From: Planctomycetota bacterium | GTDB taxonomy: Bacteria; Planctomycetota; Phycisphaerae; WQYP01 | Length of the DNA stretch: 32,525 nt | Direction: 5' to 3' | NCBI GenBank assembly: GCA_048498455.1 | Contig: JBEHXY010000003.1 | Location: 1 to 32,525, forward strand | Shown: one piece after another, positions 2,556-19,215 of the stretch | How the letters are laid out: each line of letters opens with the position of its first letter | Numbering within the stretch: the first letter of the stretch is position 1 | Translations under genes and position numbers: made by a program | The notes under the pieces: generated by a model | What the model saw: only the letters and a program-made list of their open reading frames with translations | Told to the model about the DNA's origin: nothing | The model's database searches: none

Positions 2556-2557
2556 GA

Positions 2558-3451
2558 TCAGGGCTCCTCACTATGGCCGTCGATGGCGACCGGATTTGCC
2601 AAGTACAGATTTTTCTTATACTCGATGCGACGAGCCCCGAAGCATGCGAACACGCCCATTTCCTGCGTCCATGTCCGCTGTTGGAGCAGACATCCGATCG
2701 CCTCTGCATTCAAAGCGGCACGCCACAGGGGCCACGTGAAATGTGTCTCGCCTTTGATCTCGCGAAATCCGGTTGTTCGCAAACCATCAGTCGTTGGGAC
2801 AGACACCAGGAACGAAGTACCCACAAATGCGAGCGCATTTGCGGCGGCGACGGACCGGGTTTCCGTGCTGCCCGGGTCTGTAGACATGTGCGCTCCGGTG
2901 CGCATATCCAGCGGGTCCCAACGAAATGTGGGCTGGTCGAGGTCTTCATAGCGCCACGGCTCAAATAACGCTCCGCGGAGCCGCTCCGGCGTCGCGACCT
3001 GCACCAGCTTTTGGAAGTCTTTCAACAACAGCTTTCCCCCTTGGCCATTGCTGAAACTGAGCTGATTGGGAACGACGGTGCCTTTCTTCTCGGTCAAAAT
3101 CGCGTTCGACCCAAACGCCGCCGCGAAGCGCAGCCGGCACTCGCTCTCCGCTTGGTAGCCCTCCTTGACGAACTGCTCGAAGCGGCTGCATTCAACCCCA
3201 ATAATGTCGCCCAGCCCCGTCACACCCTCTTTGATGACCATCCGTAAACCATCACTCAGTTGCTGCGAAAACTCAGCCGGCGCCATCGGTTGCTGGGTAT
3301 ACAGCACCGCCCGAAATCCTTTCGTCCAGCCAAGCCCCGGTGACGCCGCGTCCACCATCCCGATCAGCCGCAACACCCCCAGCGCCGCCAGGAATCCCAC
3401 CGGATTCGCCCCGTCGATCCCGCTCAGTTCCGTCGCATGAACCGTTTTCAC
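2558..3451 (-). CDS. csb3: Type I-G large subunit, short form (Cas8g2/Csb3-like)
   Basis: 297 aa; LSGIDGANPVGFLAALGVLRL N-terminus, FRWDP and FTWPLW motifs; GTGA overlap with the cas3 stop. Confidence 0.8.
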   Translation of the reverse strand: MKTVHATELSGIDGANPVGFLAALGVLRLIGMVDAASPGLGWTKGFRAVLYTQQPMAPAEFSQQLSDGLRMVIKEGVTGLGDIIGVECSRFEQFVKEGYQAESECRLRFAAAFGSNAILTEKKGTVVPNQLSFSNGQGGKLLLKDFQKLVQVATPERLRGALFEPWRYEDLDQPTFRWDPLDMRTGAHMSTDPGSTETRSVAAANALAFVGTSFLVSVPTTDGLRTTGFREIKGETHFTWPLWRAALNAEAIGCLLQQRTWTQEMGVFACFGARRIEYKKNLYLANPVAIDGHSEEP

Positions 3452-6429
3452 CGTTCATCCTCCTGCTCGGCCACCGCACTTGCGTGTTGATCCGCGCATC
3501 GCAGCATCGATTCCAGGTACGCCAATCCCCACCAGCCATACCGCCGCGTCAACCCCCAGAACCGCTCCAGCACGCCGCTGTCGAGCCGGTGAGCCACGCC
3601 AGCAATTTCGGCTCGCGAACTCCGATCCTCAGCCCCCAGCCTTAGCCCCCCGATGGACACCGCTGGAGCCGCTTCATCCTCGACCACCGGCGCCAGCGGC
3701 CGCGCATATCCGTGATGCGCCGCTATCAAGTGCAATACCAAATCCCTCTCGCCATCCGCCAACTCCCCCGACCTCGCGGCCAATTGCATCGACAACATCT
3801 CATGCCGAAATCCCTCAGGCACCCCGAAATGCTGCCGCGCCTCCCGCTCTTTCCGGCCCGCAAACGTCCGCCCCGACTTTGCCAACAACTGCGTTTCTGT
3901 TCCCGCCCACCGCCGCCCCGCCAGATAGTTTTGAAACCGCCCATCGGCCTTCCCATAGTCATGCAGTTGCGCCGCCTCTACCATCAGCTTGGAAAGTTCC
4001 GGCGCCAGCACCGCCGACAACCAGCTCGCAGCCGCCTGGACCTCCCCGGTATGGTGCCACAGGAGCATCCGCTCATCCCCGCGCGATACCGACTCATCCC
4101 CTTCATCCGTCTCAAACGCCCAGTCCTCCACCAGTTCCTTCCGCTGCTTCCTCACCAGCAAATACTCCTTCTCCCCGTACGCCACCACGCGCGGTGGCTG
4201 CCACTCCCGCGATGCTCCCACCGCCAGCTTCCCTACTTCCTCCATCCATTCCCGTGCCAAGCGTTTTTCGCTGGAATCCGTCGGCATCGCTTCGATCCCC
4301 GCCCCCACCGCCGCCAACACCTCTTCAAGCTCCCGCTTTTCCCCCGCTTCCTTCTTGACGGTCGCCGCTTCTCCGAGCACTGCCGGAACGCGCAGCGCCA
4401 CGGCCTGCTTCGTCTGCCAATATGCCCATTCGTATGCGTCCGCAGGCGTGTCCGCACGTGGACACAACGAGTCAAAGGATCCGTCTCCCGCTGACAAAAC
4501 CACCACATCCTGCGGCCTGATTTTTGTCACCGCGCGAGGCGCATTCGATAATTCCCCCGCACGCCATATCCACACGCGAAGTGATGTTCCCCCAGCCGCC
4601 CCCTCCTTTTCCTCTGCCTCCACCCCTAGTTCCAAATCATCCCCCGCCTTCGGCTTGCCCCCGTTCAGATATTCCCGCAGCTCCCGCAACGGCAGCGTCA
4701 ACATCTCCGCCGACACCGGCGGCATCTCCTCCAGCGCCCGCCGCTCCGCTTCCAGATCCCGCCTCATTCCTTCGAGTTCCGCCGCCACCTCCCGCCGCCA
4801 GATCACCCGCACATCCGGCCGCGCCCGCTCCCCCGGCAGCGGAATCCCGTGCAGAAACAACCCAACCTCCGGCTCCAACGCCGGCTTCGGAGAAGTCTGC
4901 GACCACAAATCCACGTACGCCGGCAGCATCAGCGGTGCACGCCGCCGCCGCCCCACCAGCGATGACATGCGCCCGGCCGCTTGGACCTCCGCTACCGCCG
5001 GAGCCATCGCCCCAATGCCCATGTCCACCACCGTTCCCCCGAGCGCCCGGAGCCAGTTCCAGGTTCGTGCCAGCGCGTTTCCGTAAATCGGATCGAGCGG
5101 CTTCTCATCATCTAGGTCGTCATCCGCCGGCACATCGTTCTTCCGCGCCAGGATTGCCGCAGCCGCCGGTTGGGGCTGGTCCCCCAGCCGGTTCAACCGC
5201 CCGAACCGCTGCCGCAGCGCGTCCAGGCTCGCACACTCCGTCAGCAGCGCGTCAAAGCTGAAATCCGCCCCCACCTCCAGGCACTGCGTGGTCACCACAA
5301 CGATCGGCTTCTCCAACTTCTCCTTGCTGCCCGACTGCAGCTTCTTCTTATACGCCTCCACAAAACGATCCCGGTCCACCGGACGCCGGCGTCCGGTGAC
5401 AAGTTGCACGTCCGCCTGCTCGGCGCTCAGCAGTTTGCCCAAGGCGTCGATGACCTGCACCGCGGTCGCCACGCGGTTCACCATTACCGCCACGCGCTGC
5501 CGCCCGTCACTCACGAATGCCGCCGCCCGCTGTGCCGCTTCCGCCACCAATTCGTCGGCAGACAAGGTCTCCCCCTTGCCTTTGCCGCTCTTGGTTGAAG
5601 CGATCACCAACTGCGCGGGCTTCGATGCGCGAATCCGTTTTTGCAAAACAGCATCGCCAAGCGCCTTCTCCCGTTCCTCCAACGCAGGAAACACCCGCCA
5701 CTCGTTTTCCCCCGGCGGCGTCGCCGACATCACCACCAGCTTCAACGGCTTGTCCACCGGCTCATTCGCCCACGGCTTCCCGCGCAATCGCTCCACATAC
5801 CTCACCGTCTCAATGAAGGGCTCCGCCAGGTGCGCCTCGTCCACGATGATCAAGCTGTCGTTCCCCGCCAGCGCCGCATGAATCGGCAACATCCGATCCC
5901 CCACCCCATACCCCCGAAAGAGCAACCGCGACCCCAATTGGTCGATCGTGCTGGTGATCACGGCAGGCTGCGCCGGATTCCGGGACCACGCCACCTGCCG
6001 CGGCGCCCCGCCACGCAGTCGCGCCACGCCCAGCGGTGTCAATCCTTGATCACTTCTCTTGTCCTCCGGCCACCCTGCCACCGCCAGCAGACTGTTCCGG
6101 ACCCTGTGCAAAAGCCCTTCCTTCGCCCTCTGCAGTTGCTCCGCAATATCCTTCGCCCGCTCATACGCCTCATCCACCACAATCCGCCGATCCACCACAA
6201 ACCAGATCCGCCGCGGTGTGGGTAATCCCATTGCCAGCGCAAAGATCGCCACGTCCATGCACGCCGTCTTGCCGCTCGCCGTCGGCAAATCGATCAGGTC
6301 CGGCCATCCCTCCGTCGCCACCCGCTCCATTAGCATCGTCTGCCACGAAAACGGCTTGTACCCATGCAACCCTTCGAAGAACCTTCCGAAATCCCCCAAT
6401 GGCAGTTTTTCCGACATTGTCTTCATCAC
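3448..6429 (-). CDS. cas3: Type I-G Cas3 helicase-nuclease with C-terminal HD domain
   Basis: Walker A DLPTASGKT, DEAH, SAT, TTQCLEVGAD, QRFGRLNR. HD-domain motifs (LHDYGKAD, RHEMLS, AHHG, ADQHAS) are at the C-terminus, a type I-G hallmark. Confidence 0.96.
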   Translation of the reverse strand: MMKTMSEKLPLGDFGRFFEGLHGYKPFSWQTMLMERVATEGWPDLIDLPTASGKTACMDVAIFALAMGLPTPRRIWFVVDRRIVVDEAYERAKDIAEQLQRAKEGLLHRVRNSLLAVAGWPEDKRSDQGLTPLGVARLRGGAPRQVAWSRNPAQPAVITSTIDQLGSRLLFRGYGVGDRMLPIHAALAGNDSLIIVDEAHLAEPFIETVRYVERLRGKPWANEPVDKPLKLVVMSATPPGENEWRVFPALEEREKALGDAVLQKRIRASKPAQLVIASTKSGKGKGETLSADELVAEAAQRAAAFVSDGRQRVAVMVNRVATAVQVIDALGKLLSAEQADVQLVTGRRRPVDRDRFVEAYKKKLQSGSKEKLEKPIVVVTTQCLEVGADFSFDALLTECASLDALRQRFGRLNRLGDQPQPAAAAILARKNDVPADDDLDDEKPLDPIYGNALARTWNWLRALGGTVVDMGIGAMAPAVAEVQAAGRMSSLVGRRRRAPLMLPAYVDLWSQTSPKPALEPEVGLFLHGIPLPGERARPDVRVIWRREVAAELEGMRRDLEAERRALEEMPPVSAEMLTLPLRELREYLNGGKPKAGDDLELGVEAEEKEGAAGGTSLRVWIWRAGELSNAPRAVTKIRPQDVVVLSAGDGSFDSLCPRADTPADAYEWAYWQTKQAVALRVPAVLGEAATVKKEAGEKRELEEVLAAVGAGIEAMPTDSSEKRLAREWMEEVGKLAVGASREWQPPRVVAYGEKEYLLVRKQRKELVEDWAFETDEGDESVSRGDERMLLWHHTGEVQAAASWLSAVLAPELSKLMVEAAQLHDYGKADGRFQNYLAGRRWAGTETQLLAKSGRTFAGRKEREARQHFGVPEGFRHEMLSMQLAARSGELADGERDLVLHLIAAHHGYARPLAPVVEDEAAPAVSIGGLRLGAEDRSSRAEIAGVAHRLDSGVLERFWGLTRRYGWWGLAYLESMLRCADQHASAVAEQEDER

Positions 6430-7934
6430 TCGCTCTCCCGCTTTTGATCCATCGGCCGCAGCAATCCATACCCCCGAAACCGCCCCGCTCCCACCAGCAG
6501 CGGCCCCACCACCGGCCGGTCAAACTCGATGACGACATGCGTATGCCGCCGCTCGCTTCCATCCTTGCGTTTCATCCGCGGAAAATCCCGTGCCGGCGGA
6601 ACGCCCACAACCTCAGAAACTGCCGACACCCGCGCCTTCACCCCCACCTCCGCCCCCACCACGCGCCGCGCCGCCTCCTCCACCGAAGCACAGCATTCCG
6701 CCAGATACGCCGCCCGATCCTTCGCCTTCCCATGCTGGTCGTACACCAGCGGCGTCACGCTCGCCCAGCGCGTCGCCCCGTGCGGCGCCCCGGTCCACGC
6801 CTCCGCCTGCAATGCCGCACGCCAATCACCCAACGGTCCCTCGCGCACCAGCCGCCACTGCCCCAGCCCCGGATAACGCTGCCGGTCAAAACCCAGCCCA
6901 GATCCCTGGTGTTTCCCTTCATCCGCAATCGCCTCGATTGCTGCCAGCAGCAGCCGCTCATCAACCTCCGCCATCCCGCGCGGAAAGGCGATCCCCACCC
7001 CCAGCAAATGCCCGTTGGCATGTTCATGCCCCACGAACCCCAGCGGAAAACAGGCCACGTGCGCCCGCGTGGTCGCTCCGCCTCCCTCCCCATGCCCGCT
7101 GATCGACTCGGGCGCTCCCTTTGGACAGTGCTGCAGAATCGCCGCTCGCAGCGTCGCCGTCAGTGCCAGCGTCGTCTCCAATTGCAAATGACGAAACGTC
7201 GTCGCCGCCGGCTCCAGCCGCAGAATCTCCACGCGCTCGTCAAACACCGTCCGAGCCGCATCCGCCGGCGCGTCCATAACTTCCGAATACCCCTGTGACA
7301 TCGAAATCACCGGCCGATACCGCGGCGGTGAACGGAACGCTGTTTCCAGCCGTTCCAGCGTCCCCGCCGTCTGGCTGACCACCCGCATCGTCATCGCCGG
7401 CCGCCGCTCGACCGGCTGCCACGTCTTCAGCCCCTCCCCCGGCCCCTCCGCCACCCACACCTGCGCCAGCGAACTGCTGTGCCCCAGCCGCCCCACCAGT
7501 GCGCACAGTACCGAGAGCGTCTCCCGATGCCCATCCACCCCCGGCGCCTCCGGCCAGTTGAAATAGAGGCTATCCTCCTCAGGCGCCAGCGCCACCCGCG
7601 GAAACAACCGCTCCGCCCGATGCCGCTTCAACACCGGAAGTGTCTGAATGGAACCCCCACGCCCCACCGCCTTCGCGTCGTTCATGGGCACGAACGCGGG
7701 CACCGCCTCGTTGACGATCGCGCGCCCGCTCACATGCACCGCCGGCGGTGGCAATCCCTCCAGCCACTCCAGCGCCGCCCGCTCGGCCTCCCCTCGTGCG
7801 CACTCGAAATGCGCCGCTGCCAGTGCCATATACAGCCGCGCCGGATGCGGCGGCCACTCCGGAACCGGATCCGTCTTCGACCGCGCCGTCCCGCACAGTC
7901 CGGTCAAAAATCTTACCGCGATCGTCAAAGACAT
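6426..7934 (-). CDS. csb2: Csb2 (Cas5-Cas6 fusion, type I-G)
   Basis: PEWPPHPARLYMAL, LGHSSSL, WASVTP and C-terminal glycine loop GPLLVGAGRFRGYGLLRP. Start placed at ATG 7934 (AAGGGG upstream) rather than the track's 7988. Confidence 0.93.
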   Translation of the reverse strand: MSLTIAVRFLTGLCGTARSKTDPVPEWPPHPARLYMALAAAHFECARGEAERAALEWLEGLPPPAVHVSGRAIVNEAVPAFVPMNDAKAVGRGGSIQTLPVLKRHRAERLFPRVALAPEEDSLYFNWPEAPGVDGHRETLSVLCALVGRLGHSSSLAQVWVAEGPGEGLKTWQPVERRPAMTMRVVSQTAGTLERLETAFRSPPRYRPVISMSQGYSEVMDAPADAARTVFDERVEILRLEPAATTFRHLQLETTLALTATLRAAILQHCPKGAPESISGHGEGGGATTRAHVACFPLGFVGHEHANGHLLGVGIAFPRGMAEVDERLLLAAIEAIADEGKHQGSGLGFDRQRYPGLGQWRLVREGPLGDWRAALQAEAWTGAPHGATRWASVTPLVYDQHGKAKDRAAYLAECCASVEEAARRVVGAEVGVKARVSAVSEVVGVPPARDFPRMKRKDGSERRHTHVVIEFDRPVVGPLLVGAGRFRGYGLLRPMDQKRESE

Positions 7935-8012
7935 GCTGCACCCCTTGGAAACCGACAGGATCCCACGGCCCCGCATCACCGGGACCACCGCTGCCTCGCT
8001 GGCGAGTGTCTA

Positions 8013-9212
8013 TCAGTCTTCGCCCGCTTCGCTCACCGCCAGCTCCTGGCTCTTCCTCACAAGCTCCACCAACTGCTTCGACGGCGTCAGCACCACCGGT
8101 TCGGTCTCCCACGGCAGCCCCGCCTTCTTCGCCGCCGCTATCGCATCCTTCAGCAACTTCACGGCCGCCTCCCGATCGAGCGCATAACCCACCGGCGCCT
8201 GCCCCGGCACCGCCAGCAGCTCCCACGCCATCGGCCCCTCCGGAAACAGCAAACACCGCGACCGCAAATCCATCCCCGCCCCAAACGCCATCGCCGCCGA
8301 ACACAGCCCCAGCGCCGCCAGCACCGCCCGCGCTGCCACGTTCACCTCCTCCGACGCCTTCCCCTCCTGCCTAAGCGGAAACCGCAGCCGCCGAAGCTGA
8401 ATCAGCGACAACGTCGTCGTCTGCTCCGCATACTCCACCGTCACGCCGCCGTTGTCCGATTCAAACGGCACGCTCCCATGATTGATCTCCGCGGGCGAAA
8501 GCGTCCCCTTCGCCTTCGGGTCCGCCGCGACCTTCCACTGCGTCGGCGATTCCCGCTGCACCTTTACTGCCGCGCGGCTCCCCAGCGGATCCCGCCGAAT
8601 CCCGTGATTCTTGTCCACCGTCTCCACGTTCATCCCCACGACCTCCGATACGATCGCCCGCTCAAACTTCGTGCCCAATCCCCCCTTGGGCCCCGTCGAA
8701 TCCCACATCCCAAACAAGAGTGCCTGCGGGCACAACCGAAACAGCGGCGTCGCAAACCCAGCCCCCGCCATATCGATCTCCTTCCCGACCGCCGACGCCC
8801 GAAACGGCTTCTTCTCAAACTCGCTGTCACGCAAAATCGCATCCGCAATCCGATGCGGCGCCTGCAAACTGCTCACACGCCCCACTGGCTCAAGCAATTT
8901 GGCATCCGAAAAATCCACCACCACCAGCGGCATCCCCACTTCGCCGCCCTCCACCGCCTCCTGCAACGCCTCCTCCATGCGGTTCGCCTGGCTCTGCACG
9001 CTGTCCAGCACGACGCACTTCACTGCCTCCTCCCGCCCCGGCACGCGCCGCTGCTCCACCGCGTACACCGCCCCCGCATACGTCGGCGGAAACACCTTGT
9101 CCCCCGCCCCGCCGGCCGGCTGCAACCGCCGCCGACACCGAAACGCCGCCCCTTCCCGCACCGCCTTCGCCAACACCTCATACGTCAACACCGTACCCTG
9201 CGTTTCCGCCAT
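8013..9212 (-). CDS. csb1: Csb1 (Cas7, type I-G backbone)
   Basis: LQPAGGAGDKVFPPTY, LDSVQSQANRME, PHRIADA, LLFGMWDS; AGGAGA RBS at 9223-9218. Confidence 0.94.
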   Translation of the reverse strand: MAETQGTVLTYEVLAKAVREGAAFRCRRRLQPAGGAGDKVFPPTYAGAVYAVEQRRVPGREEAVKCVVLDSVQSQANRMEEALQEAVEGGEVGMPLVVVDFSDAKLLEPVGRVSSLQAPHRIADAILRDSEFEKKPFRASAVGKEIDMAGAGFATPLFRLCPQALLFGMWDSTGPKGGLGTKFERAIVSEVVGMNVETVDKNHGIRRDPLGSRAAVKVQRESPTQWKVAADPKAKGTLSPAEINHGSVPFESDNGGVTVEYAEQTTTLSLIQLRRLRFPLRQEGKASEEVNVAARAVLAALGLCSAAMAFGAGMDLRSRCLLFPEGPMAWELLAVPGQAPVGYALDREAAVKLLKDAIAAAKKAGLPWETEPVVLTPSKQLVELVRKSQELAVSEAGED

Positions 9213-9308: not shown

Positions 9309-11186
9309 TCACTCCACCATCCGCAACTTGCACGGCGTCGGATCGATGCTCACCTGCAGCGCCCGCCCCAGCGTCGTCAGGCTCACCACCGCCTGGCCCG
9401 GCGCCAGCGCCGGGACCCGCGCCCACAGGCTGTCGTCGATCCCCCCGATCGACCGCCGCAGCCGCGTGATCACGTTGGCGTCCCCGATCTTGTGCAAAAT
9501 CCAATTATTGATCAGCCCCAGCACTTCGTCCGGCAAGTGCTGCGGCAACTGCGTGATGAACGCCATCCCGAACCGCCGCTTCCGCCCGCGCCGCGCAATC
9601 CGCGCCACTTGCTGGAAAAGCACCGGCATCTGCTTGATCCGCTGCGCCGACAGAAACTCATGCGCCTCCTCAATGCAGACCAGCACCGACGGCGGAGCCT
9701 CCCCCTTCTCCACCGCCCGCTCGTAATTTTCCTCCTGTGCCCCCTGCAGTCCCCGCAGCAAATCGGCGATCACTAGGTTGTTGATCTGCGGCGAATCCGT
9801 GTCGCTCAAATCCAAAATCGTCACCCGCCCCGGTCGCAACAGCAGCGGATACTCCAGCGGCTTGGCCTCGCGGTCATTCAGCGAATCCTTCACCTCCGAA
9901 TCAAAAATCCCCAGCCGCACGATTCTCCCCAGTTTTCCCACCACCGCCATCCAGGGAAACTTATTCTGCGGCACGTCCTTGTGCTCGCCCACGATCCCAA
10001 CCACCTCGTCCTCCCGCCCGCGCAACTCCCGGCTCGTCAGCCGCACCTCCCCCTTCTCTTTCTCCTTTCCCACCCCGGCCGTGATCGCCCGCACCACGTC
10101 ATACAGCAGCGGCAGGGTCATCTTCGGATACCCCTCCTCCATCTCGTCGAGCTCCACCTGCCGCACCCGCTCCTCTGGCGACACCGGCCAGATCTTCAGC
10201 CGCTCCATCACCACCTTGGCGATGTCATACGCTTTCAAAAACCGCTGCTCCTGCGCCTCATTAAGTTCCAGAATCTCCGCCACCGCAAAAGGCGAAAGCG
10301 TCTCAAAACGCAGCGAAAACGGCCTCCGATGCGGATGCCCCGGATTCGCCGACTTCCGCCCGATCAGGTGATAAATGACGCTCTCCCGCACCCCCGCCGG
10401 CCGCAAGCCCCGCCGCGCCAGCGCCTCCACCATCCCCTTGTCATTCGTCGGCTCGTTGATGTGCGTGTACTCCCCCTCCGTGTCAATCAGCACCACCGCA
10501 ATCCCCTCCGCCAGCGCCCGCGCGATCAGCCCGGACACCGTCGTCGACTTCCCGCCTCCCGTCGTCCCCAGCACCCCCAGGTGCCGCGGAAACAGCCCCT
10601 TCGCTTTCGCCGGCACCACTACTGGCAAATCCTCGAAGCCGTCCGCCAGCCCCAGCCGCAAATTCCCCTCCAGCTTCAGCACCTCCGCGGTCTGATGGGC
10701 ATCCAGCGCGAACACCGGACTATTGGGCTTCGGCCGCCGCCGCCGTGGCACCACCGCCCCGCCCCCCAGCTTCTCCCCGATCAGCTGGATCTGTACGCGC
10801 CCATGATGTTTGGGCAGCAGCAATCCCCCCTTGGCCAACGACACCACCATCGGCGTCGCATCCGCGCGCAGCCCGTCCGGCTCCGCAAACGGCCCCGCCA
10901 CTACCGCCCCCAGATACACCCGCCCATCCTTGCTGGCGATCCGCACCAGCGCCTGGCTCGTGAGAGAATCAATCATCCCCATCGGCAAAATCGCCGTCAC
11001 CGTCCCATCCTCGCTCGAGGCCGAATCAAACATCGTCCGCCCCACCGCCCCCTCCTCGCCCGCCGGCGGCACAAACGGCCCGCCCGGCACCCGCCCCGCA
11101 TCCGCATCAATCGCCGCCAGCGCTTCTTTCGGTGTCGGCATCGCCGCCCCATCGTCCTCCGCCTCTTCATGCTCCTTGACCACCAT
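9309..11186 (-). CDS. herA: HerA-family (FtsK/HerA, DUF87) ATPase/helicase
   Basis: Walker A GVLGTTGGGKST, IDTEGEY, Walker B VCIEEAHEF, arginine finger ARRGRK, ITQLP; N-terminal HAS-barrel-like region. Start placed at ATG 11186 after GGAGGA. Confidence 0.9.
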   Translation of the reverse strand: MVVKEHEEAEDDGAAMPTPKEALAAIDADAGRVPGGPFVPPAGEEGAVGRTMFDSASSEDGTVTAILPMGMIDSLTSQALVRIASKDGRVYLGAVVAGPFAEPDGLRADATPMVVSLAKGGLLLPKHHGRVQIQLIGEKLGGGAVVPRRRRPKPNSPVFALDAHQTAEVLKLEGNLRLGLADGFEDLPVVVPAKAKGLFPRHLGVLGTTGGGKSTTVSGLIARALAEGIAVVLIDTEGEYTHINEPTNDKGMVEALARRGLRPAGVRESVIYHLIGRKSANPGHPHRRPFSLRFETLSPFAVAEILELNEAQEQRFLKAYDIAKVVMERLKIWPVSPEERVRQVELDEMEEGYPKMTLPLLYDVVRAITAGVGKEKEKGEVRLTSRELRGREDEVVGIVGEHKDVPQNKFPWMAVVGKLGRIVRLGIFDSEVKDSLNDREAKPLEYPLLLRPGRVTILDLSDTDSPQINNLVIADLLRGLQGAQEENYERAVEKGEAPPSVLVCIEEAHEFLSAQRIKQMPVLFQQVARIARRGRKRRFGMAFITQLPQHLPDEVLGLINNWILHKIGDANVITRLRRSIGGIDDSLWARVPALAPGQAVVSLTTLGRALQVSIDPTPCKLRMVE

Positions 11187-11215
11187 GGCATCCTCCACTC
11201 GTTATACGCACAAAC

Positions 11216-12445
11216 TCACCGTGTCCTGCGCTCCGACATGTACCGAAATGGTGCCCCCGCCTCCGAATACGCCACCTGCATCGATGCCGTAAACGCATCC
11301 ATTCCGAATGTCGCCTTGCAAAGGTTGTCCGCCAGATCGATCAGCATCGGAAAACCGCGATGCTCCTGCAGCACGCTATCTGCCAGCGCAATCAGCGCCG
11401 CTTCATGGGCATGGTCCACATGCGCATAGAATGCCTGGCACGGGCTGAATCGCGACGCCCGATACAGCCCCCGCACAATCTTCGGCCCGCACTCGCGGAT
11501 GAACGCATCCAGTTGATCTTTGATCGGCCCCCACCCCTCGCCGCGATAATGCCCCCCGGCAACCTCCCCCAGGAACTGCTCGTGCGTCTCCAGGATCGCA
11601 TATTCCAGCGGCTGAAGGGCATTGCCGATGGTCAGCCACTGCCGCCCCTTGAAACTCGAAGGCACGAACACAAACCGCTCAAGCTCCACCATCCGGCGAA
11701 ACATGCGGATGCTCATTGCCGCAAGCTGCGCCATCCCGGACCCCGTCAACAGCTCATACGGCGTGGGATTCCCATGCCCCATCCGCCACACCGCGTTCGA
11801 ACGGTCCATCAGCACCGCACGCTCCGCATACGCCATGATCCCCCGCCGCGCAAGGTCGCTCAGCCGGTCACGCGCCGCCGCTTCATCAACCGCCGATCGC
11901 CGCCGCCGCCGTTCGAGGAGGGCATACAATGCATTCACCGGATCTCTCCCCTGACCCCGCAGATCCCGCCGAAACAACCGATGCACCCACGACCCCTGAT
12001 CCCCCTGGTACCCCGTCAAACACACCCCGATCTGCGTGATCGTCACCGGCAGCGTGTCATGCGCCGCCACGATCCCGTCACACGCCTCCACCCCTCCGTT
12101 GAACAGCAATTTCTGGTGAACCCCCTCTACCTGTTCGACCTTTGCCCTCCACACCCCCGCGCACGCCAAGCCCTGCCGCTCGCGCAATTGTGGAAAAATT
12201 TTCTCCCGAATCTTTTTCTGCCAATCCCCCTCCTTCCGCACTGCCTCCGCCACCTCCGCCTCCAGCCGCCCATACAACGCCGCCAAGTCCCCCCCCGCAC
12301 GCCACGTGTCCAGGTCCAGCGCCCGCTCCAGCGGCTCGTCAAACTCCCTGCTGAAATCGTCCCCGCCCATCGACGGTCTCGAATCAGGCACGCCGCCGCC
12401 CAGACTGCCCTCCTCACCCTCCTGCATGTCATCCGACTCGCTCAC
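11216..12445 (-). CDS. Divergent NurA-like (RNase H fold) nuclease
   Basis: 409 aa; VEACDGI resembles the NurA AxDGS motif and RGFPMLIDLAD resembles GYPxxLxxAH/D; lies immediately upstream of herA; CAGGAG RBS. Confidence 0.65.
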   Translation of the reverse strand: MSESDDMQEGEEGSLGGGVPDSRPSMGGDDFSREFDEPLERALDLDTWRAGGDLAALYGRLEAEVAEAVRKEGDWQKKIREKIFPQLRERQGLACAGVWRAKVEQVEGVHQKLLFNGGVEACDGIVAAHDTLPVTITQIGVCLTGYQGDQGSWVHRLFRRDLRGQGRDPVNALYALLERRRRRSAVDEAAARDRLSDLARRGIMAYAERAVLMDRSNAVWRMGHGNPTPYELLTGSGMAQLAAMSIRMFRRMVELERFVFVPSSFKGRQWLTIGNALQPLEYAILETHEQFLGEVAGGHYRGEGWGPIKDQLDAFIRECGPKIVRGLYRASRFSPCQAFYAHVDHAHEAALIALADSVLQEHRGFPMLIDLADNLCKATFGMDAFTASMQVAYSEAGAPFRYMSERRTR

Positions 12446-12472
12446 CGTCCAGCTCCTGTGGTGACAAGATGC

Positions 12473-13197
12473 TTACGCGCCCAACCACTCCCGCATCGAT
12501 TGCTCTTTTCGCCCACTTTCCCTCAAAAACGCCCCATACGCCCGCGCCGCTGCCTGCGGCAACCCAAACGCCGCCCGCAACACTTCGCCCGCCTCCGCAC
12601 CCGCATTCCCGATCCGCCGCCGCGCCTCCTCCGCCGGCGCCAAAAGCTCCAGCGCCAACCGATCCGCCGCATCCTCTGCCGCCAGCACCCGCGCGCTCAC
12701 GATGGATTCGTCCGGCCCACGCTCCATCAGGTGCTCCTGTCCCCCCACCTTCACCCCTGCAAACAACGCATTGAGCCGTTCCTCAGCCGTGGCCGGCCGG
12801 AGCCCATCCAGCGCCGGCGCAACCCCCGGCCCCAGCGCCGCAATCACCCGTTCCCGCGGCCACCAGTAGTCCATCAGGAAATGCGCAAGCTCGTGCGCCA
12901 GCGAATACCGCCTCTCGTCCGCCCCGTCCGCCGCATCCAGGAAAATCACTCCCCACCCGTTGCGCGCCACCATGCATGCCCGCAGCTTTCGCCCCGCGAC
13001 ATGCGCATCCCCAAAGCCCGCCACGCGCGCCGCCGCCAGCCACCCCTGCACCGCGCCTCCGTCCAGCCATGACCGCATATGAATCGCCACTGGCAACGAC
13101 GACAGCGTCGCTGTCTCGAGGTCTCGCGGAAACGGTCCTCCTTGCCTGCCAGCTTCCAGAACCGCGCCGCGTGCATTGCCACCTCATACTCCGTCAC
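12473..13197 (-). pseudogene. ImmA/IrrE-family (DUF955) HExxH metallopeptidase, frameshifted near 13137
   Basis: RRYSLAHELAHF and EDAADRLALELLAP motifs. The GTG 13197 frame (MTEYEVAMHAARFWKLAGKE) joins GPFPRDLETATLSSLPVAI if one G is added in AAGGAGGACCG, giving 241 aa. Could be a sequencing error. Confidence 0.8.
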
Positions 13198-13655
13198 GTC
13201 CCACCTCCTTTCTCCCCGGAACTTAAATCCCCGCCTTTCTCACCTGTTTGCCGGTCCCGCGCTGCCATCAACCATCCTCCGCCGGCAATGCCCTCGCCCA
13301 GCGCTACCACCGCCGCAACCTCTTTCACTACCCGCCCAAGCGCCGCCGCATCACACGGACCCGCCGCCGCGATCGCCTCCACGTCCTCCCGAAACGTGCC
13401 GCCTTCTTTGCCGGCCAATCCCTCACTTCGCGGCATAAAACACATCGCCAACGGCACAATTGCCCTAGCCTCGCACCCCAGCGCCCCCGCCAATTGCTCC
13501 TCCGACATTCCATGTATTCCCCGATAAACCCCAAGGGCATGCCCCAGAAACCGCCGATCCCCCGCGAGTTGATCCGCCGCCCGGCGGAACGCTCGCTCCA
13601 TCGCCCGCGCTTCCCCAGCCCGCTCAGTCTGATCGTTTCCTTCATCCGCTTTCAT
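13194..13655 (-). CDS. Hypothetical protein with XRE/Cro-like HTH segment
   Basis: 153 aa; LGVYRGIHGMSEEQLAGALGC looks like an HTH; C-terminal WLMAARDR; overlaps both neighbouring genes. Confidence 0.6.
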   Translation of the reverse strand: MKADEGNDQTERAGEARAMERAFRRAADQLAGDRRFLGHALGVYRGIHGMSEEQLAGALGCEARAIVPLAMCFMPRSEGLAGKEGGTFREDVEAIAAAGPCDAAALGRVVKEVAAVVALGEGIAGGGWLMAARDRQTGEKGGDLSSGEKGGGT

Positions 13656-14279
13656 GCCACTGATCTCCCAGCCGCCGAATCTGTTTGCTGATCCGATCCT
13701 TGCACCGCTTCACTTGATCTCGTTGCTCTTCGATGGGCAAATGCCCGATGTGCATGGTCTCTGCATAAACCTCAGTCCTCCGTTCATCCGCCAGCATCAA
13801 TCGCAGCACCTGCAGGTCTACCTCAGAGTTAAACAGGGCCTCTGCCCGCACAAGAAATTCCTTATTCTCAGCGATCGCCGCCGGATCGTGCCGCCCTTCA
13901 TCCCCCTTATTCCCATCCGCTTGGGAAAGTTCGACAGCCGCCCCCAAAATTCTTCCGTCCCCGCGCTGGGCCTTCGCCAGTGCATTTCGGAAGTCCCCCT
14001 CAGCCGCCATCTTCAAGAATCCCCAAAGCGATTTTCCTCGGTGCGGGTCATACAAGCCGGGTTTCCCAAGAAGCGATAAGACAGCATCGGTGGGCTGTCC
14101 ACAACCAGATCGTCGTCAGCGCGAGCCCCGAATCGCGTCGCCAAATGCCGAAAGAGTGCGGGAAGCGCGATAGTTAGCAGATGGACCCCACCGGCGGGCT
14201 GGCCTTCAACCACTCCCTTGAATGCTTCCATCAGGGCCACTTGGTCAATTGCTCCCGCCTTCTCCACGAGTCGCTCCAT
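13642..14279 (-). pseudogene. Sigma70/ECF-like sigma factor, frameshifted near 14093
   Basis: The ATG 14279 frame (…ADDDLVVDS) joins TDAVLSLLGKPGLYDPHRGKSLWGFLKMAAEGDFRN (region 2-like) if 1 nt is added in GACAGCCCACC. C-terminal DLQVLRLM…YAETM…VKRCKDRISKQIRR is region 4-like. 212 aa when restored. Confidence 0.7.
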
Positions 14280-15598
14280 CAGGGCTTTTGAAAAATAACT
14301 ACCACTTCACGACGCATCCGCCCCGCCACAGGATTGGACCGCGCCAGCTTCCCTGGTGGTGGCAGGCTCCGCCATCCGGCCGGCAAACTTCGAACCGCGT
14401 GTCCTACCATCGTCAGTCCGTGCTGGACTCCCAAAGCCTCCACCACCTCCGCCTCATCCGACCGACTCTTATTGATTACCGTCGGTCCCAACACCATTGC
14501 TGCCAGCCCCCCTGAGCGCAGCACCCTCGACACTTCCGACAGACTGTGCCCCAAATCCGAAAGATACCTCCGAACCAGGGCCTGCCTCCGACCCTCCTCC
14601 AACCGTCGCTTCAGCCGCAGTTCCAATTCCGTCGGCAACCCGTCGCGCGTCCACAAGCCGCGCTCCGACCCGATGAGGCTTCCGCGCAGCTCCCGGAGTC
14701 CTTTCAGCGAATGGCCCATCCAGACAAGCGAGAATCTGTGCCCCCGCAAATAGTCGATCGCATTGAGACACGGGGGAGAGGTCAGCACCAGATCCACCCG
14801 CCCGCTCGCAATGGGCAGGTTCCGCGCGTCGCCTTGCATCACCATGGCCGGAAGACCCGCGGGCGCTGCAAACGAGCGGCGAGCGATGACCGCGGTAAAC
14901 CGCTTCTCCCATAAAGCGAAGGGCGTCGACAACTCCCGGCCCTTGACCTTGTGCGGCCGGGAACGCGCAATATCTAGGGCGTACGAAACGCCCGCGCTCT
15001 TGGCGATGATCAACGACGAAAACGCGACCTCCGAGAGAGTTCGCACGGCATCCGCGGGCTCCTCGCGTATGGCGATTCGCAGCGCGTCGAGCTCATCTCT
15101 CGCCCCCCTTGGAAACCAATACGACAGAAACGTTCGAAGTTCAGCCGGGTGCCTGCCTTTACCAGATTTTAGTCGCGGAACCTCCTCCTTCATCACCTGC
15201 TTGGCCCGGGTCAAGATCCGCTTACCGGCCAGAAGGATATCGTCGGGCCAGTGATCGTTCACACTTACGCGGCTGACGAGCAATGCCAAGGGATCTCGAT
15301 CGATTCCCACGCCAACCCGGCCCAGAAATTTTGCCGCCACCACCGTTGTCCCCGACCCACACATCGGATCCAGCACGACATCACCCGGCCGGCTCAAGGC
15401 CTCGATGATCGCACGGGCCAGCGATTGGGGCATACGTGCGGGAAAAGGATGAACCCTCGCCCCATCCCGGTCCTGCCCCACCGCTCCCGCATCGATCGCA
15501 CGCAAGAGCGTTTGTGCGGCGGAGCGAAACTCGGCTGCATCAAACGACATACCCGGCACGGATCGCTCCCAGCGCGCAAAGCTGATCGGCTTGCTCAT
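14279..15598 (-). CDS. DNA amino-methyltransferase (N4C/N6A type, motif I before motif IV) with SPPC catalytic variant
   Basis: HPFPARM, SAM-binding VLDPMCGSGTT, GDAR, VDLVLTSPPCLNAIDY, RVLRSGG; TGATG overlap with the sigma gene. Confidence 0.85.
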   Translation of the reverse strand: MSKPISFARWERSVPGMSFDAAEFRSAAQTLLRAIDAGAVGQDRDGARVHPFPARMPQSLARAIIEALSRPGDVVLDPMCGSGTTVVAAKFLGRVGVGIDRDPLALLVSRVSVNDHWPDDILLAGKRILTRAKQVMKEEVPRLKSGKGRHPAELRTFLSYWFPRGARDELDALRIAIREEPADAVRTLSEVAFSSLIIAKSAGVSYALDIARSRPHKVKGRELSTPFALWEKRFTAVIARRSFAAPAGLPAMVMQGDARNLPIASGRVDLVLTSPPCLNAIDYLRGHRFSLVWMGHSLKGLRELRGSLIGSERGLWTRDGLPTELELRLKRRLEEGRRQALVRRYLSDLGHSLSEVSRVLRSGGLAAMVLGPTVINKSRSDEAEVVEALGVQHGLTMVGHAVRSLPAGWRSLPPPGKLARSNPVAGRMRREVVVIFQKP

Positions 15599-16309
15599 TT
15601 GGAATTAGCTGCCCCCACTGACGTAACGCGCTCGCCAGCGAAGGTAATTCCTATGGCCGGGGGGAATATATGCGAAATGTTTGAAAAATTCGGCGATTTT
15701 TCGTGACTTCCATAGCGGCGATGCGGGTAGTAGACTTTGATCACTTATACTAATCGTTGGTTTCTGCACTATTTGCCAGCGATGACTTTGTCGACTTCAC
15801 CATTGTCACCACGCCAGACGCGGTGAGCGTGGCCTTGTTGGCGGCCGGCACGTCGCTTCTCATGGGCCGGATAAAGTCAAAGACCTTGAGCGCTTAGCGG
15901 GTGGGTGCTGAATATCTAAATCGCGAGCGCGGACGAATTATAGAATGAAATTGTTGCACATTGGCGGCTGTCGTATCGGAGCAGGGCGCGTCTGTGGTGA
16001 GAGTCTGACAATAGTTGCTCACCACCAACGTGAACTGCAGCAATGGGCGTCCCTCCAATTGGTCGCGCGTCAAGGATGTCCAGTCCCACGCACCCTCACG
16101 GCCCGCCATCCTGCCCGCGCTTCTCGTTTCTCCTCACCGCTTGCGAATCTTCCCTGATGAGCTTGCGAAAGCCTAGGCACATTTGCATACTGCTGCTCCT
16201 GTTGATTCTACAGAATCATCTATTTACATCCAAACGAATAAGGCCGACAACATACTCCATCGCTCCCCATGGCCGGCCCCGTCTACATCGGCCTCGTCGC
16301 CACCTCCGG

Positions 16310-16968
16310 CTTCCGCGCGAAATGGGCTGCGGCAGCGGCATGACCTGCTGGCGTCGCCTGCGCGATTGGAACAAGCGCGGCGTATGGAAGCGTCTGCACG
16401 AGGTGCTGCTGAACAAACTCCAGGCGGCCAACAAAATCGAATGGTCGCGGGCGGTGATCGATTCCACCTCCATACGCGCGATGCAGCGGGGAAAAAAACG
16501 GGACCGAGCCCCGTGGACCGCCGTAAATACGGCTCCAAACACCATCTCTTGGTCGATGGCAAGGGACGCGTGCCCCTGGCGTTCTCGGTCACGCCGGCCA
16601 ATCGCCACGACGTGACCCAACTTCTTCCGCTGGTGGAGGGAGTGCCGATGGTCAAGGGGAAGATCGGCCAGCCGCGGCATCGGCCGGGAATTCTCCTGGG
16701 CGATCGGAGATACGATTCTGATCCGCACCGGCAGGCCCTTCGGGAAAGAGGCATTCGTCCTCCGATCGCCCGGCGGCGCACCGCCAACGGCAGCGGCCTG
16801 GGCATTTATCGCTGGGTGGTCGAGCGGGCTGAGAGTTGGGTGCACAAGTACCGTCGCCTCAAGCTGCGGTATGAACGTCGTGACGACATCCACGAGGCCT
16901 TCGTCGCTCTGGCTTGTGCGCTTATCTGTCATAATTGCCTGCTGGATCCATTTTGTTAGGAACTCTAA
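16310..16968 (+). mobile_element. IS5-family (IS427-group-like) element, 5'-truncated
   Basis: LPREMGCGSGMTCWRRLRDW…VIDSTSIRA, shifting frame at GGGGAAAAAAA (16488-16498) into TGPSPVDRRKYGSKHHLLVD…GDRRYD…RWVVER…RYER; stop at 16959. Transposase N-terminus and left end not found. Confidence 0.9.
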
Positions 16969-17199
16969 TAGTGTCTCCGTACTTTCTTTGTTGCGCCACC
17001 GGTTAGTGTCATCAGAGGCATATGCCTATTGGCAACCCGACGGGATGAACAAAGCGGTCGCAGTTTGGTCCGAGTGGGCTCCTGGCAGAGGAGTTTGAGA
17101 ATGGCGGACCGGGATATAGTATGAGCGAAGACAGTAGTCGTTATGGCGGGTTGGTACACGGGAATTTGACCTTCGTCGCTTTTCAAAGTCACGGTTAGT

Positions 17200-17470
17200 G
17201 TTGCCCTGCGTCTTGCCGTGGGCGAACGCATTCAAGAGTTCTCTGCCCCACCGGTTCCCCCAGTCGTAGCGCGTGGCGTGTGAGCGGTGCGGGGATGTGG
17301 GAGGTGGTACCCGCCCTCCGGGTGTGTGAACACCGTGAGCCGTGAGGCCGGGGGCGGGTGTCGGGGGTTGAACCATCAGGCTTAACAACCAGCAGCGCGC
17401 TTAACCAAGCCGTGAGGCTGAAAGCGTTCCCTTCTCCGCCAGGGGAAGGGCGCCGGGAGGGGGTACAACA
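17200..17470 (+). ncRNA. Structured non-coding segment (candidate IS110-type non-coding end/bridge RNA, or group II intron fragment)
   Basis: Hairpins GGTGT-GTGA-ACACC (17321-34), GCC-GTGA-GGC (17339-48), AGCC-GTGA-GGCT (17408-19), CCCTTCTCC-GCCA-GGGGAAGGG (17429-50) and TGCGT…ACGCA (17207-30). Ends in GGAGG (17456-60) followed by a junction with an IS5 fragment. Confidence 0.45.
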
Positions 17471-17770
17471 GCCAAGCTGGCGGGGGACAAGGGTTACAGC
17501 TACCGCACGGTTCGTCGCTGGCTCCATCGCTACGGCATCCAGGCGGTGATTCCGCTCAAGGAAAACCAGAAGGGCAAGCCGGGCAGACCCGCGGACTTCG
17601 ACCGGGAAGCCTACCGCCAACGCAACGTGGTCGAACGCTGCGTCGGCTGGTTCAAGGAGTGTCGGGCGCTATGCACCCGCTTCGACAAGCTCGCCGTCAA
17701 CTTCCTGGCCATGTTCAAGCTGGCCATGATCCGGAAATACTTGAAAATGCAGTCGTCAGACAGGCCCTAG
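17471..17770 (+). mobile_element. IS5-family transposase 3' fragment
   Basis: AKLAGDKGYSYRTVRRWL…FDREAYRQRNVVERCVGWFKECRALCTRFDKLA; ends …TCAGACAGGCCCTAG. Confidence 0.9.
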
Positions 17771-17841: not shown

Positions 17842-19215
17842 TCAAGTCAGCTCCACACGTCGCCCGGCGGGAGTTGTTGCCACAATTCGCTTCTGCTCGC
17901 GATGGAACTGCACAGTGCAAGCCGACTGCGTCTGCGACACCAGCGTTGTTCCTGAGCCCATTTTAATCGACGTCCCGGAGAACAACGTCTCGCGGCAGAG
18001 GATTTCGCCTCCACCTTCCAGCGTCCAGGATGCATCCAAATCCCGATATCGTTGCTCCTGCTCCCGCGCTTGTGCACTCAGCACGATGTGCCGTTTGACA
18101 ACAGCACACAGGGCTTGGCGTTCAACGCTCGAGAGTTTTAGCAAATCCGGCCGAGCGTGCCTGAACTGCTCGATCACCTTTTCCAGCGCCACAATCATCT
18201 GCCGCAGTCCTGCGGCCTGCTGCTCGTGCTCCCCAAGCTGCTGCAGGATCTTCCAGTCATGGCCGACGGATACCCGCGTAGCCACCCCGGCCGCATTGCC
18301 CAGACACTTCACCTGGATACAACTTCCAGCCCGCAGGTCCCCTCCAAAAACAACACCCTTCCCCATGTCCACCGCCACCTGTTTGCCCGCTGTCAGCCGA
18401 GAATGGAGCACCGCGTGCCGAACCAGAATGTCACCCTCGCAGTAGACGGTCGCATTTTCCACGTATCGCACATCCACGACGGTCTTGGCCGAGATGAATC
18501 CGCAACCTCGCCCCGCCAGCCCCTGTTTCACCCGCACGGCACCGCCCGAGGAAACAACCGTCGCGCCTTCGACGCCCGCCTCCACTTCAATATCCTCGGT
18601 CGCGACCACGCGGGCTCCGTCCTTCACGGTCCCTTTGATTACCACCGTGCCCTCGAACTCGATGGCTTTGTCGTTCACCGTTAGGTCCCCTGGCCATACG
18701 AGATGCCGCCGAACCTCCAGACTTTGTCCGTCAAAGGTTGCCAGACCATCAACCGTTGCGACGAATGTCGCTGTGATTGCATCGAAGACGACCCCCGCCA
18801 GCATCGACAGAGCCGCCACTTTCCCGCACGGTGCCGGGATTTCCTCTCCCAAGACATTGATGCCCGAAGTGCCCGGGGACGCCGGCACGATACGGGCAAG
18901 CACCTCCCCTTTTCGCGTCATCCATTCCTTGGCCCGGCGTCCGCCCCTTTGCAGCAGAAGCTGTCCTGGCACAGGCACAATGCTGCCATCCTTGCCCCCA
19001 ACCGGCGAGCGTCCCGCCGCGATTTGTGAACGCTGCGAGGCACGCCCCGTTTTCAAAACCTCGCCGGTGATCGCCGTGATCGCTTCCATATCAACGCCTT
19101 GGACCACGCCTATCGCACGGAGCTTCGAAATCACGTCTGAGGTGGTGATGAACTTCCCGCCACCCTCCCCCGGCGTCACGCATAGGTACGCAGCCATCCG
19201 GTCTTCGCGGATGCT
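17842..19215 (-). pseudogene. DUF342/FapA-family protein, 5'-truncated
   Basis: SIREDRMAAYL…IAAGRSPVGGKDG…GTSGINVLGEEIPA…IEFEGTVVIKGTV…GKGVVFGG…LGNAAGVATRVSVG. The frame begins abruptly at the ISKra4 junction (~19215). Confidence 0.8.

Follow-up and report, generated by a model that had tools for sequence, protein, structure and literature searches.

A 32,525-nucleotide (nt) stretch of a Planctomycetota bacterium genome (assembly GCA_048498455.1, contig JBEHXY010000003.1, positions 1–32,525; hereafter the window) carries overlapping genes for a sigma-like protein, a small helical protein of 153 amino acids (aa) and an M78 (ImmA/IrrE/CapP-type) zinc peptidase, and raises the question of what such a trio controls and how. 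The source is a metagenome-assembled genome of 540 contigs that is 82% complete. A sequence-only reading of the window had proposed that the small protein is a helix-turn-helix (HTH)-like repressor or anti-sigma factor that the peptidase cleaves, perhaps near an A-A-R motif, to activate downstream defense genes. On balance, we favor a model in which the trio acts as the control module for a conserved cassette, where a peptidase cut of an anti-sigma factor would free the sigma factor to transcribe the defense genes.

Results

The three genes belong to a conserved cassette

All three overlapping genes named in the sequence-only reading are real and lie on the minus strand between 12473 and 14279, but the sigma-like and peptidase genes are each split across two reading frames. 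The sigma stop codon and the small-protein start overlap by 14 nt, and the peptidase GTG start at 13197 overlaps the small-protein stop codon (GTGA). They form part of a run of six consecutive minus-strand genes (9309–15598) in the order methylase, sigma, small protein, M78 peptidase, a protein here termed X, and a HerA-type ATPase.

Related loci were scored with hidden Markov models (HMMs) made from the first homologs; for the full-length Chloroflexota matches, up to ~9 kb was fetched per side, and less at contig ends. Counting the window, the resulting census comprises 39 distinct loci; L008 duplicates the DNA of L004, and L012 was dropped as a weak partial match. Locus counts are descriptive only, because related genomes are not independent, and pattern scans favor close relatives. 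The same gene order was found in 38 loci besides the window, from Planctomycetota and Chloroflexota. The peptidase gene lies downstream of the small-protein gene in 38/39 loci (exception, L075) and a sigma-like gene lies upstream of it in 37 of 38 assessable loci (exception, L007; L010 ends at a contig edge), so the triad is syntenic elsewhere. X follows the peptidase in 36/37 assessable loci (exception, L054), and HerA follows X in 30/31 (exception, L068). A homologous methylase gene is present within the fetched stretch of 17 of the 39 loci, where it is upstream on the same strand, upstream and divergent, or downstream and convergent. Rather than being a stand-alone switch set before arbitrary defense genes, the triad belongs to a single fixed cassette that also contains a methylase, a NurA-like protein and HerA; the CRISPR-Cas genes further downstream in the window are a separate neighbor outside that cassette.

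A search with X in 40 related genomes returned one relative, G016, with all six genes intact (locus L003). Pattern scans with the small-protein alignment returned four genome loci (one from Tepidisphaeraceae and three from Chloroflexota) and five metagenome loci; the metagenome scan used a 10-row alignment, and one of its five loci duplicates L004, while another is the discarded L012. By profile search, the small protein was found in 32/401 Chloroflexota genomes, a tally that counts one unpublished genome, and in 1/401 genomes of the window's own phylum, which is the window's genome alone. Among 1.84 billion representative sequences, the family profile matched 2,073 clusters (50% identity) at E ≤ 0.001 and 1,319 at 1e-10. 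Plasmid and phage collections gave no tblastn match to X or to the family member P0005. A literature search found no paper on the cassette, the small-protein family or an M78-controlled sigma factor, with most subscription journals and bioRxiv supplements outside its coverage. The cassette is widespread and apparently undescribed.

Three known systems were considered and rejected as a home for these genes. Matches to MADS were limited to weak hits for mad2 (1.8e-9) and mad8 (8e-17) that fall below generic methyltransferase and HerA models; the eight-gene operon described in the accessible portion of the MADS preprint includes a kinase and a specificity subunit, both absent from the cassette here. 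The parts of the MANTIS/Gao_RL system and the components of the BREX-related HerA "capture" systems (PMC12839542), as far as the available text of each source describes them, also differ from those of the cassette.

The four loci that depart from the gene order were inspected individually. In L007 (Dehalococcoidia; 6200–7900), the sigma gene is replaced by a long CRISPR-like short-repeat array that adjoins the small-protein gene; the repeats read the same peptides in all frames, and the cassette is otherwise intact. L054 (8354–10231) is an orphan triad followed by the housekeeping genes map, fpg and polA, L075 (1131–1800) is a cassette without the peptidase whose small protein reads AARH, and L068 (10171–12000) is a cassette without HerA. 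These last three are degenerate cassette variants.

The sigma-like protein has a predicted ECF fold

The two sigma fragments of the window align to the first ~80 residues and to the remainder, respectively, of intact homologs of ~210 aa, and the C-terminal fragment matches the HMM of those homologs at positions 65–207 of 214 (E 2.2e-29). The N-terminal fragment by itself gave no Pfam match. When the family profile was compared with the PDB, the top three matches were extracytoplasmic function (ECF) sigma factors, the best being RpoE (E 0.0039). An AlphaFold2 (AF2) model of the intact L003 homolog reached a predicted local distance difference test score (pLDDT) of 88.8, and Foldseek placed ECF sigma factors in nearly all top rows (SigK, E 3.8e-3). 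Domain 2 of this model superimposes on sigma-E region 2 (PDB: 4lup) with a target-normalized TM of 0.82 and a root-mean-square deviation (rmsd) of 2.0, and on PDB 2o7g with a TM of 0.77. The modeled protein folds as a two-domain ECF sigma factor, with domain 2, a linker and domain 4, and the earlier description of the gene as an ECF-like sigma is borne out by the predicted fold of its intact homolog.

The small protein is predicted to bind sigma domain 2

The small protein has no family match in Pfam or NCBIfam and, at a Pfam E of 10, no match to an HTH family except MarR (0.11) in one member. Its profile returned nothing below E 0.2 from the PDB, where HipB scored E 0.8–1.1. The AF2 model (pLDDT 85.7) is all-helical to approximately residue 125 and of low confidence after that. 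Two cysteines and a proline (L-G-C ... L-C-x-x-P) are conserved across the family and, after a variable stretch, the family consensus reads L-[M/L/A]-A-A-R-[D/E]-R, followed by a Glu/Asp/Pro/Gly-rich tail. The window's protein had been described as ending in LMAARDR, but an 18-residue Gly/Glu/Lys-rich tail follows the motif.

Binding to the sigma-like protein was modeled for the L003 pair, each chain with a family alignment built in this analysis. The complex scored 0.83, 0.83 and 0.82, compared with 0.00 for the best of three controls; these values express the confidence of the model in the L003 pair and not in the window's broken sigma. The mark used for this score is reached by 116/157 solved complexes and by 2/215 mismatched pairs. 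The runs share at least 96% of contacts, with a partner pLDDT of at least 76. The predicted interface joins sigma residues 24–70 to the N-terminal helix and the invariant L-C-x-x-P loop of the small protein. On the sigma side, it includes a family-specific G-D-x-x-A-P-x-x-x-A-E stretch and the next helix, which belong to the N-terminal half of domain 2. In known sigma factors, the N-terminal half of domain 2 carries the RNA polymerase-binding surface. The A-A-R-D motif is outside the predicted interface. Binding of the small protein to the sigma, which had been put forward for a check by structure modeling, is thus supported at the level of the model, through sigma domain 2. No classical anti-sigma domain was present among the fold matches listed for the small protein; no complex of this family turned up among the solved structures, and sigma/anti-sigma complexes are generally well represented in the PDB.

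The same protein could instead be a DNA-binding repressor of the CapH/ImmR/DdrO type that sits on the two-block motif described below as its operator until it is cut, with the sigma as a separate activator or a bystander. We consider this unlikely, although the characterized M78 substrates in the literature available to us are all HTH repressors and several features point in this direction. Many of the small protein's fold matches are Xre-type HTH domains, led by the N-terminal domain of CapH (Z 4.3, rmsd 3.0, 55 residues), with NHTF at 4.0 and the ImmR DNA-binding domain at 3.7, and the pattern L-A-x-x-L-G-C...L-x-x-L-x-L-C-x-x-P resembles an Xre HTH. Yet all of these matches are weak (Z < 5; Foldseek E ≥ 0.67) and tied with unrelated helical proteins, and the MarR hit noted above is the whole of the Pfam signal for an HTH family. 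The would-be recognition residues are also buried against the sigma in the model (0.83 vs 0.00), and the folded part of the protein is not basic across the family (median isoelectric point, 6.5). The sequence-only reading had left repressor and anti-sigma factor side by side; the anti-sigma role fits these data better and the repressor role less well.

The peptidase carries M78 motifs and the small protein an invariant A-A-R

The main part of the peptidase matches Pfam PF06114 (26.3 bits; cutoff, 22) and the PADLOC capP model (1.6e-7). The family profile matched CapP (PDB: 7t5t; E 1.4e-4) and IrrE (PDB: 3dte; 1.2e-3) through the HExxH motif and a second metal-ligand block, and an E-x-x-A-D...LLAP block downstream of HELAH aligns to the second motif of CapP. 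Both blocks are conserved in 33/33 full peptidase rows. In alignment with homologs of ~245 aa, the shorter window fragment covers the first 23 residues and the longer one everything after them. As judged from its sequence, the peptidase carries the metal-binding motifs of the M78 (ImmA/IrrE/CapP) family. A C-terminal block, L-x-x-x-F-G-L-P-x-x-x-A-x-x-Y-A (12500–12600, minus strand), gave weak profile matches (E 7e-4 to 1) to ribosomal protein uS3, all of them to one and the same uS3 stretch.

Conservation of an L-x-A-A-R element in the small protein had been proposed as a check on the idea of cleavage near it. A-A-R is invariant in the 10/10, 56/56 and 35/35 aligned sequences of three alignments, and AAR[DE] is present in 150/157 family members.

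A promoter-like motif recurs inside the sigma gene and before X

A two-block motif, GTCG(A/C)ACTT-N13-GGAA(T/C), was first found as conserved words in the peptidase–X spacers. All loci were scanned on both strands with one mismatch allowed in the first block, which gave 55 matches; 20 base-shuffled controls averaged 4.15 and never exceeded 8. The motif is found at one place inside the sigma coding sequence in 27/37 covering loci, approximately 300 nt before the small-protein gene (window copy in Table 1). A further 17 matches lie 12–146 nt before X among the 35 loci with this region, with looser versions in at least five more; the other 11 matches are near background level. One of these 11, a third copy in L071, is located after HerA and before a Cas4-family PD-(D/E)XK nuclease gene (10173–10888, plus strand; PF01930, E 4.2e-17), which is a possible extra regulon member.

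The copy within the sigma gene occupies the linker that joins the two sigma domains and that is modeled with low confidence. Its first block, GTC-G(A/C)A-C(T/A)T, is conserved as DNA but encodes VEL, VAL, VEH, VAH, VEQ or VDL, and its second block, xGG-AAx, is likewise conserved as DNA but encodes GN, RN, RK or GK. Conservation of the DNA while the residues vary is the pattern that a constraint at the DNA level would leave. The consensus −35 element of sigma-E is GGAACTT, and the first block resembles a −35 element of this type at the sequence level. The motif may act as a promoter read by the sigma-like protein. In favor of an operator for the small protein instead, both blocks hold GAA and are spaced about two helical turns apart, but the motif is asymmetric and non-palindromic, and the likeness of its first block to the sigma-E −35 element points away from a repressor.

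No conserved motif was found before the sigma gene: k-mer counts there did not rise above those of shuffled sequence, and the two-block motif is absent. Loci without a motif before X, the window included, mostly have almost no peptidase–X spacer. With a spacer near zero, a single transcript begun at the internal site would span the genes for the small protein, peptidase, X and HerA in those loci.

The cassette encodes a methylase, a putative NurA-like protein and HerA

The methylase matches Pfam PF01555 (E 9.2e-16) and PADLOC type II methyltransferase models, and HerA matches DUF87/HerA (PF01935; E 2.3e-19), HerA_C (PF05872; 9e-12) and PADLOC HerA models. X, the sigma and the small protein are not covered by any model in the 2023 release of PADLOC. 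The three ESM Atlas clusters nearest to X (scores 0.95–0.98) contain NurA in 21%, 30% and 64% of their members, and X carries a conserved A-C-D-G that fits the "DG" motif described for NurA in the accessible part of one review (PMC13748450). X is therefore putatively NurA-like, based on the cluster lead and A-C-D-G. A NurA family search of the window's own genome gave no match.

A NurA–HerA pair could also serve an inducible DNA-repair operon, with end resection under a damage-responsive sigma, rather than defense against phages or plasmids. NurA–HerA resect DNA ends in archaea, Deinococcus and Thermus according to the portion of PMC13748450 available, and IrrE and CapP are described in the sources at hand as answering DNA damage. 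In L003, genes for an SbcD-like protein (376 aa) and an SbcC/AriA-like protein (877 aa), and not CRISPR-Cas genes, follow the cassette after HerA (13792–17552, plus strand). We nevertheless regard a repair operon as distinctly unlikely, given the patchy distribution of the small protein (1/401 genomes of the window's phylum and 32/401 from Chloroflexota), the linked methylase in 17/39 loci, and the type I-G cas genes and transposases that neighbor the cassette in the window. The CRISPR-like array adjoining the cassette in L007 and the Cas4-family gene under the same motif in L071 point the same way, and the same portion of PMC13748450 describes bacterial NurA–HerA as mainly degrading foreign DNA.

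The window copy is damaged in three genes

The sigma break is listed in Table 1, and the peptidase frameshift lies at TTTCC (13132–13128), where one C is missing from the C run. Reading one base back restores P-x-x-Y-x-P in the sigma and F-P-R-D-L in the peptidase. In addition, the methylase has TSPPC at motif IV (Cys277, codon 14770–14768) compared with TSPPY in 13/13 aligned homologs. The aromatic residue of motif IV, (S/D/N)PP(Y/F/W), has a catalytic role. In the window, every invariant position is retained in the small protein, X and HerA.

Contigs from four sequencing runs of four studies are identical over 12900–14300 and have no gap; the methylase codon is outside this span. Three of the four matching contig sets cover the span in one piece at a depth of 9–25, and the fourth covers it in three pieces. 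Three of the four runs were flagged as possible sources of the window's DNA; as each of these belongs to a different study, no more than one of them can be the source. The sigma and peptidase frameshifts are not assembly errors, because the contigs of four studies are identical. A minority intact allele may exist, since contigs can hide rare variants. In run X12, contigs break and overlap at 14045–14054, beside the sigma frameshift, at a depth of 4–6x; this could reflect a C-run length variant in the sample or merely low depth.

Programmed frameshifting, in which a slip by the ribosome or RNA polymerase would yield some full-length sigma and peptidase, was considered as a reason for the two breaks and is very improbable. 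The sigma break sits exactly on G_GGA_AAC in the upstream frame, which we take to be a classical −1 slippery heptamer, the peptidase break sits on T_TTC, a −1 shift restores the conserved residues at both, and contigs of four studies show no sequence difference here. Against this, aligned homologs other than L064 read in one frame at both sites, and no stimulatory RNA structure follows the heptamer (minimum free energy, −18.9, compared with a shuffle mean of −24.9; z +1.93). Both breaks are explained by a C run that has become one C shorter, and the methylase Y277C change points to general decay.

The window's cassette copy is instead probably decaying, with the switch off and the effector locked off. 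Loss of sigma and protease while the anti-sigma is kept would have this outcome, and an inducible nuclease would be dangerous without a working methylase. Genome G441 contains two cassette copies: in one (L064; 9029–9609, minus strand), the sigma is broken into two frames between profile positions 86 and 89, a short way downstream of the break in the window, and in the other (L048), the sigma is intact.

Features and neighbors of the cassette in the window

The cassette is placed between mobile-element remains and CRISPR-Cas genes (cassette features in Table 1). DDE transposase genes or fragments (PF01609) are found just upstream of the methylase gene at 16183–16959 and 17546–17770, both on the plus strand. 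A type I-G (I-U) cas set comprising Cas7g, Cas5/6g, Cas3g, Cas8g and a Cas4-Cas1 fusion comes directly after HerA (777–9212, minus strand); Tandem Repeats Finder detected 0 repeat arrays in the window and thus no CRISPR array. Unrelated minus-strand neighbors encode a FapA-family protein (17842–19197), a 981-aa Ser/Thr kinase with beta-propeller repeats (21361–24306) and a DUF1559/N-methylation-motif protein (24316–25179). Proteins of the last type are typical of Planctomycetota.

Table 1. Positions of the cassette genes, breaks and motifs in the window
Feature	Position	Strand	Basis
N6/N4-type DNA methyltransferase, 439 aa, which opens the cassette	14279..15598	-	Pfam and PADLOC
Sigma-like gene, N-terminal fragment, 88 aa, with an out-of-frame tail at its end	14013..14279	-	Alignment to intact homologs
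Sigma frameshift site GGGAAACCC, one C missing relative to the P-x-x-Y-x-P reading of homologs	14059..14067	-	Alignment
C-terminal fragment of the sigma-like gene, 137 aa (remaining part of domain 2, linker, domain 4)	13642..14055	-	HMM and alignment
Two-block motif GTCGAACTT-N13-GGAAT within the sigma coding sequence, ~280 nt upstream of the small-protein ATG at 13655	13909..13935	-	Motif scan and codon table
Small helical protein, 153 aa, candidate anti-sigma, distant Xre-HTH-like core, open reading frame intact	13194..13655	-	Family profile and AF2
L-M-A-A-R-D-R motif, small-protein residues 129–135	13251..13271	-	Alignments
Peptidase gene, N-terminal 23 codons, GTG start at 13197	13129..13197	-	Alignment, which places both fragments
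M78 (ImmA/IrrE/CapP-type) zinc peptidase, main part; HELAH at 12895–12881	12473..13129	-	Pfam, PADLOC and PDB profile
Protein X, 409 aa, NurA-like by lead only, open reading frame intact	11216..12445	-	ESM Atlas neighbors
HerA-type ATPase, 629 aa, open reading frame intact	9309..11198	-	Pfam and PADLOC

Discussion

In the model that we favor, the small protein would hold sigma domain 2 and keep it off RNA polymerase, as the predicted complex suggests. A signal, by analogy with CapP and IrrE perhaps single-stranded DNA or damage to DNA, would prompt the M78 peptidase to cut the free C-terminal region of the small protein between A-A and R-D. The new L-x-A-A end would resemble an ssrA tag and, as with CalpT and RseA, cellular proteases might then degrade what is left of the small protein and so release the sigma. 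Once released, the sigma would read GTCG(A/C)ACTT-N13-GGAA(T/C) before the NurA-like/HerA genes and inside its own gene. The internal promoter would re-make the anti-sigma and the peptidase, but not the sigma, so that the circuit could reset itself. Host DNA would be marked by the methylase, and NurA–HerA would attack unmarked DNA.

Taken as a whole, the cassette can be read tentatively as a self-resetting inducible restriction system, in which an M78 peptidase cuts an HTH-derived anti-sigma at A-A|R-D to expose an LAA-type degron and release a private ECF-like sigma, with one promoter in the codons of the sigma linker and a second copy driving the nuclease motor. On this reading, the small-protein family would represent a new anti-sigma class. 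We hold this complete circuit to be possible rather than probable.

Several observations weigh against the model. The sigma-like protein has no Pfam sigma match even at E 10, and its NCBIfam match (E 0.003) has 17 bits compared with cutoffs of 126–255. The best fold matches of the small protein are DNA-binding HTH domains, including those of the M78 substrates CapH and ImmR. Its predicted interface is confined to sigma domain 2, unlike the classical arrangement in which an anti-sigma is sandwiched between domains 2 and 4, and the scored complex contains the sigma of L003 and not that of the window. The GGAAT block is not a typical ECF −10 element, no motif lies before X in the window, and 10/37 loci have no internal copy at ≤1 mismatch. 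For X, none of 28 members matches the Pfam NurA family (PF09376) at E ≤ 1, and its profile found eIF6 alone in the PDB (E 0.089) and no NurA structure. The defense function itself is deduced from context.

A close precedent in design is CalpL-CalpT-CalpS of type III CRISPR, which also encodes a protease, a soluble anti-sigma and an ECF-like sigma at one locus; Csx30/CASP-sigma of type III-E is related. In the part of the CalpT preprint available to us, cleavage exposes a ...QLAA degron that the release of the ECF-like sigma CalpS requires, and RseA cleavage is described as exposing a C-terminal VAA, after which ClpXP removes the rest (10.1101/2024.05.08.593097). The CalpT cut is located away from the sigma interface, and L-x-A-A|R-D is similarly outside the interface predicted here. 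The protease is a SAVED-Lon protein in CalpL (or CHAT in relatives), whereas the cassette has an M78 zinc peptidase and no cyclic-nucleotide sensor; no SAVED or Lon domain was found by Pfam in the cassette proteins scanned. No sequence link was seen between CalpT and the small protein. Protease-released sigma factors are a theme in immunity shared by CalpL/T/S and Craspase/Csx30, but no sigma target genes are named in the portions of those reports that were available; here, candidate targets (the NurA-like/HerA and the anti-sigma/peptidase genes) can be named because the motif lies in front of them.

The gene arrangement resembles that of CapH+CapP, DdrO/IrrE and ImmR/ImmA, in which an M78 gene directly follows the gene of a small helical protein and precedes immune genes. 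Among PDB sequences, CapP matches the cassette peptidase profile best, and by analogy the cut would be expected before an arginine. In the accessible text of Lau et al., CapP cuts CapH at F82|R83, an R83A mutant is uncut, and a sigma70-family sigma gene lies beside capH/capP in 24 CBASS systems, which use cyclic oligonucleotides for signaling against phages (10.1101/2022.04.27.489752). CapK/CapS, as far as the source consulted describes them, are a further case of anti-sigma-type parts reused as immune regulators. CapH is a proven DNA-binding Xre HTH repressor, whereas the small protein here has no HTH family match and is a predicted sigma binder. CapP and IrrE chains, which include a C-terminal GAF-type sensor domain, are also longer, at 291–301 aa compared with ~245 aa for the cassette peptidase, and the varied effectors of CapH/CapP systems contrast with the fixed NurA-like, HerA and methylase set.

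Like E. coli RseA/sigma-E, the cassette would hold an ECF sigma with an anti-sigma, and the first block of the motif resembles the sigma-E −35 element. Unlike RseA, the cassette parts are all cytoplasmic and include neither a membrane anchor nor site-1/site-2 proteases. The motif is also located inside the sigma gene and not before it, so full-length sigma would not be auto-amplified. As in NurA-HerA, Sir2-HerA and DUF4297-HerA, HerA directly follows its putative nuclease partner; the differences are that X is only remotely NurA-like and that a methylase and a sigma switch of their own accompany the two genes.

The six-gene circuit, from signal through cut, degron, sigma and promoter to nuclease, could be rebuilt and tested. 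The damaged copy in the window offers a natural example of the possible shutdown of a potentially self-toxic system. If the model is true, it would give a function to an unannotated family of 2,073 clusters and would link M78 peptidases, known as cutters of repressors, to the control of sigma factors.

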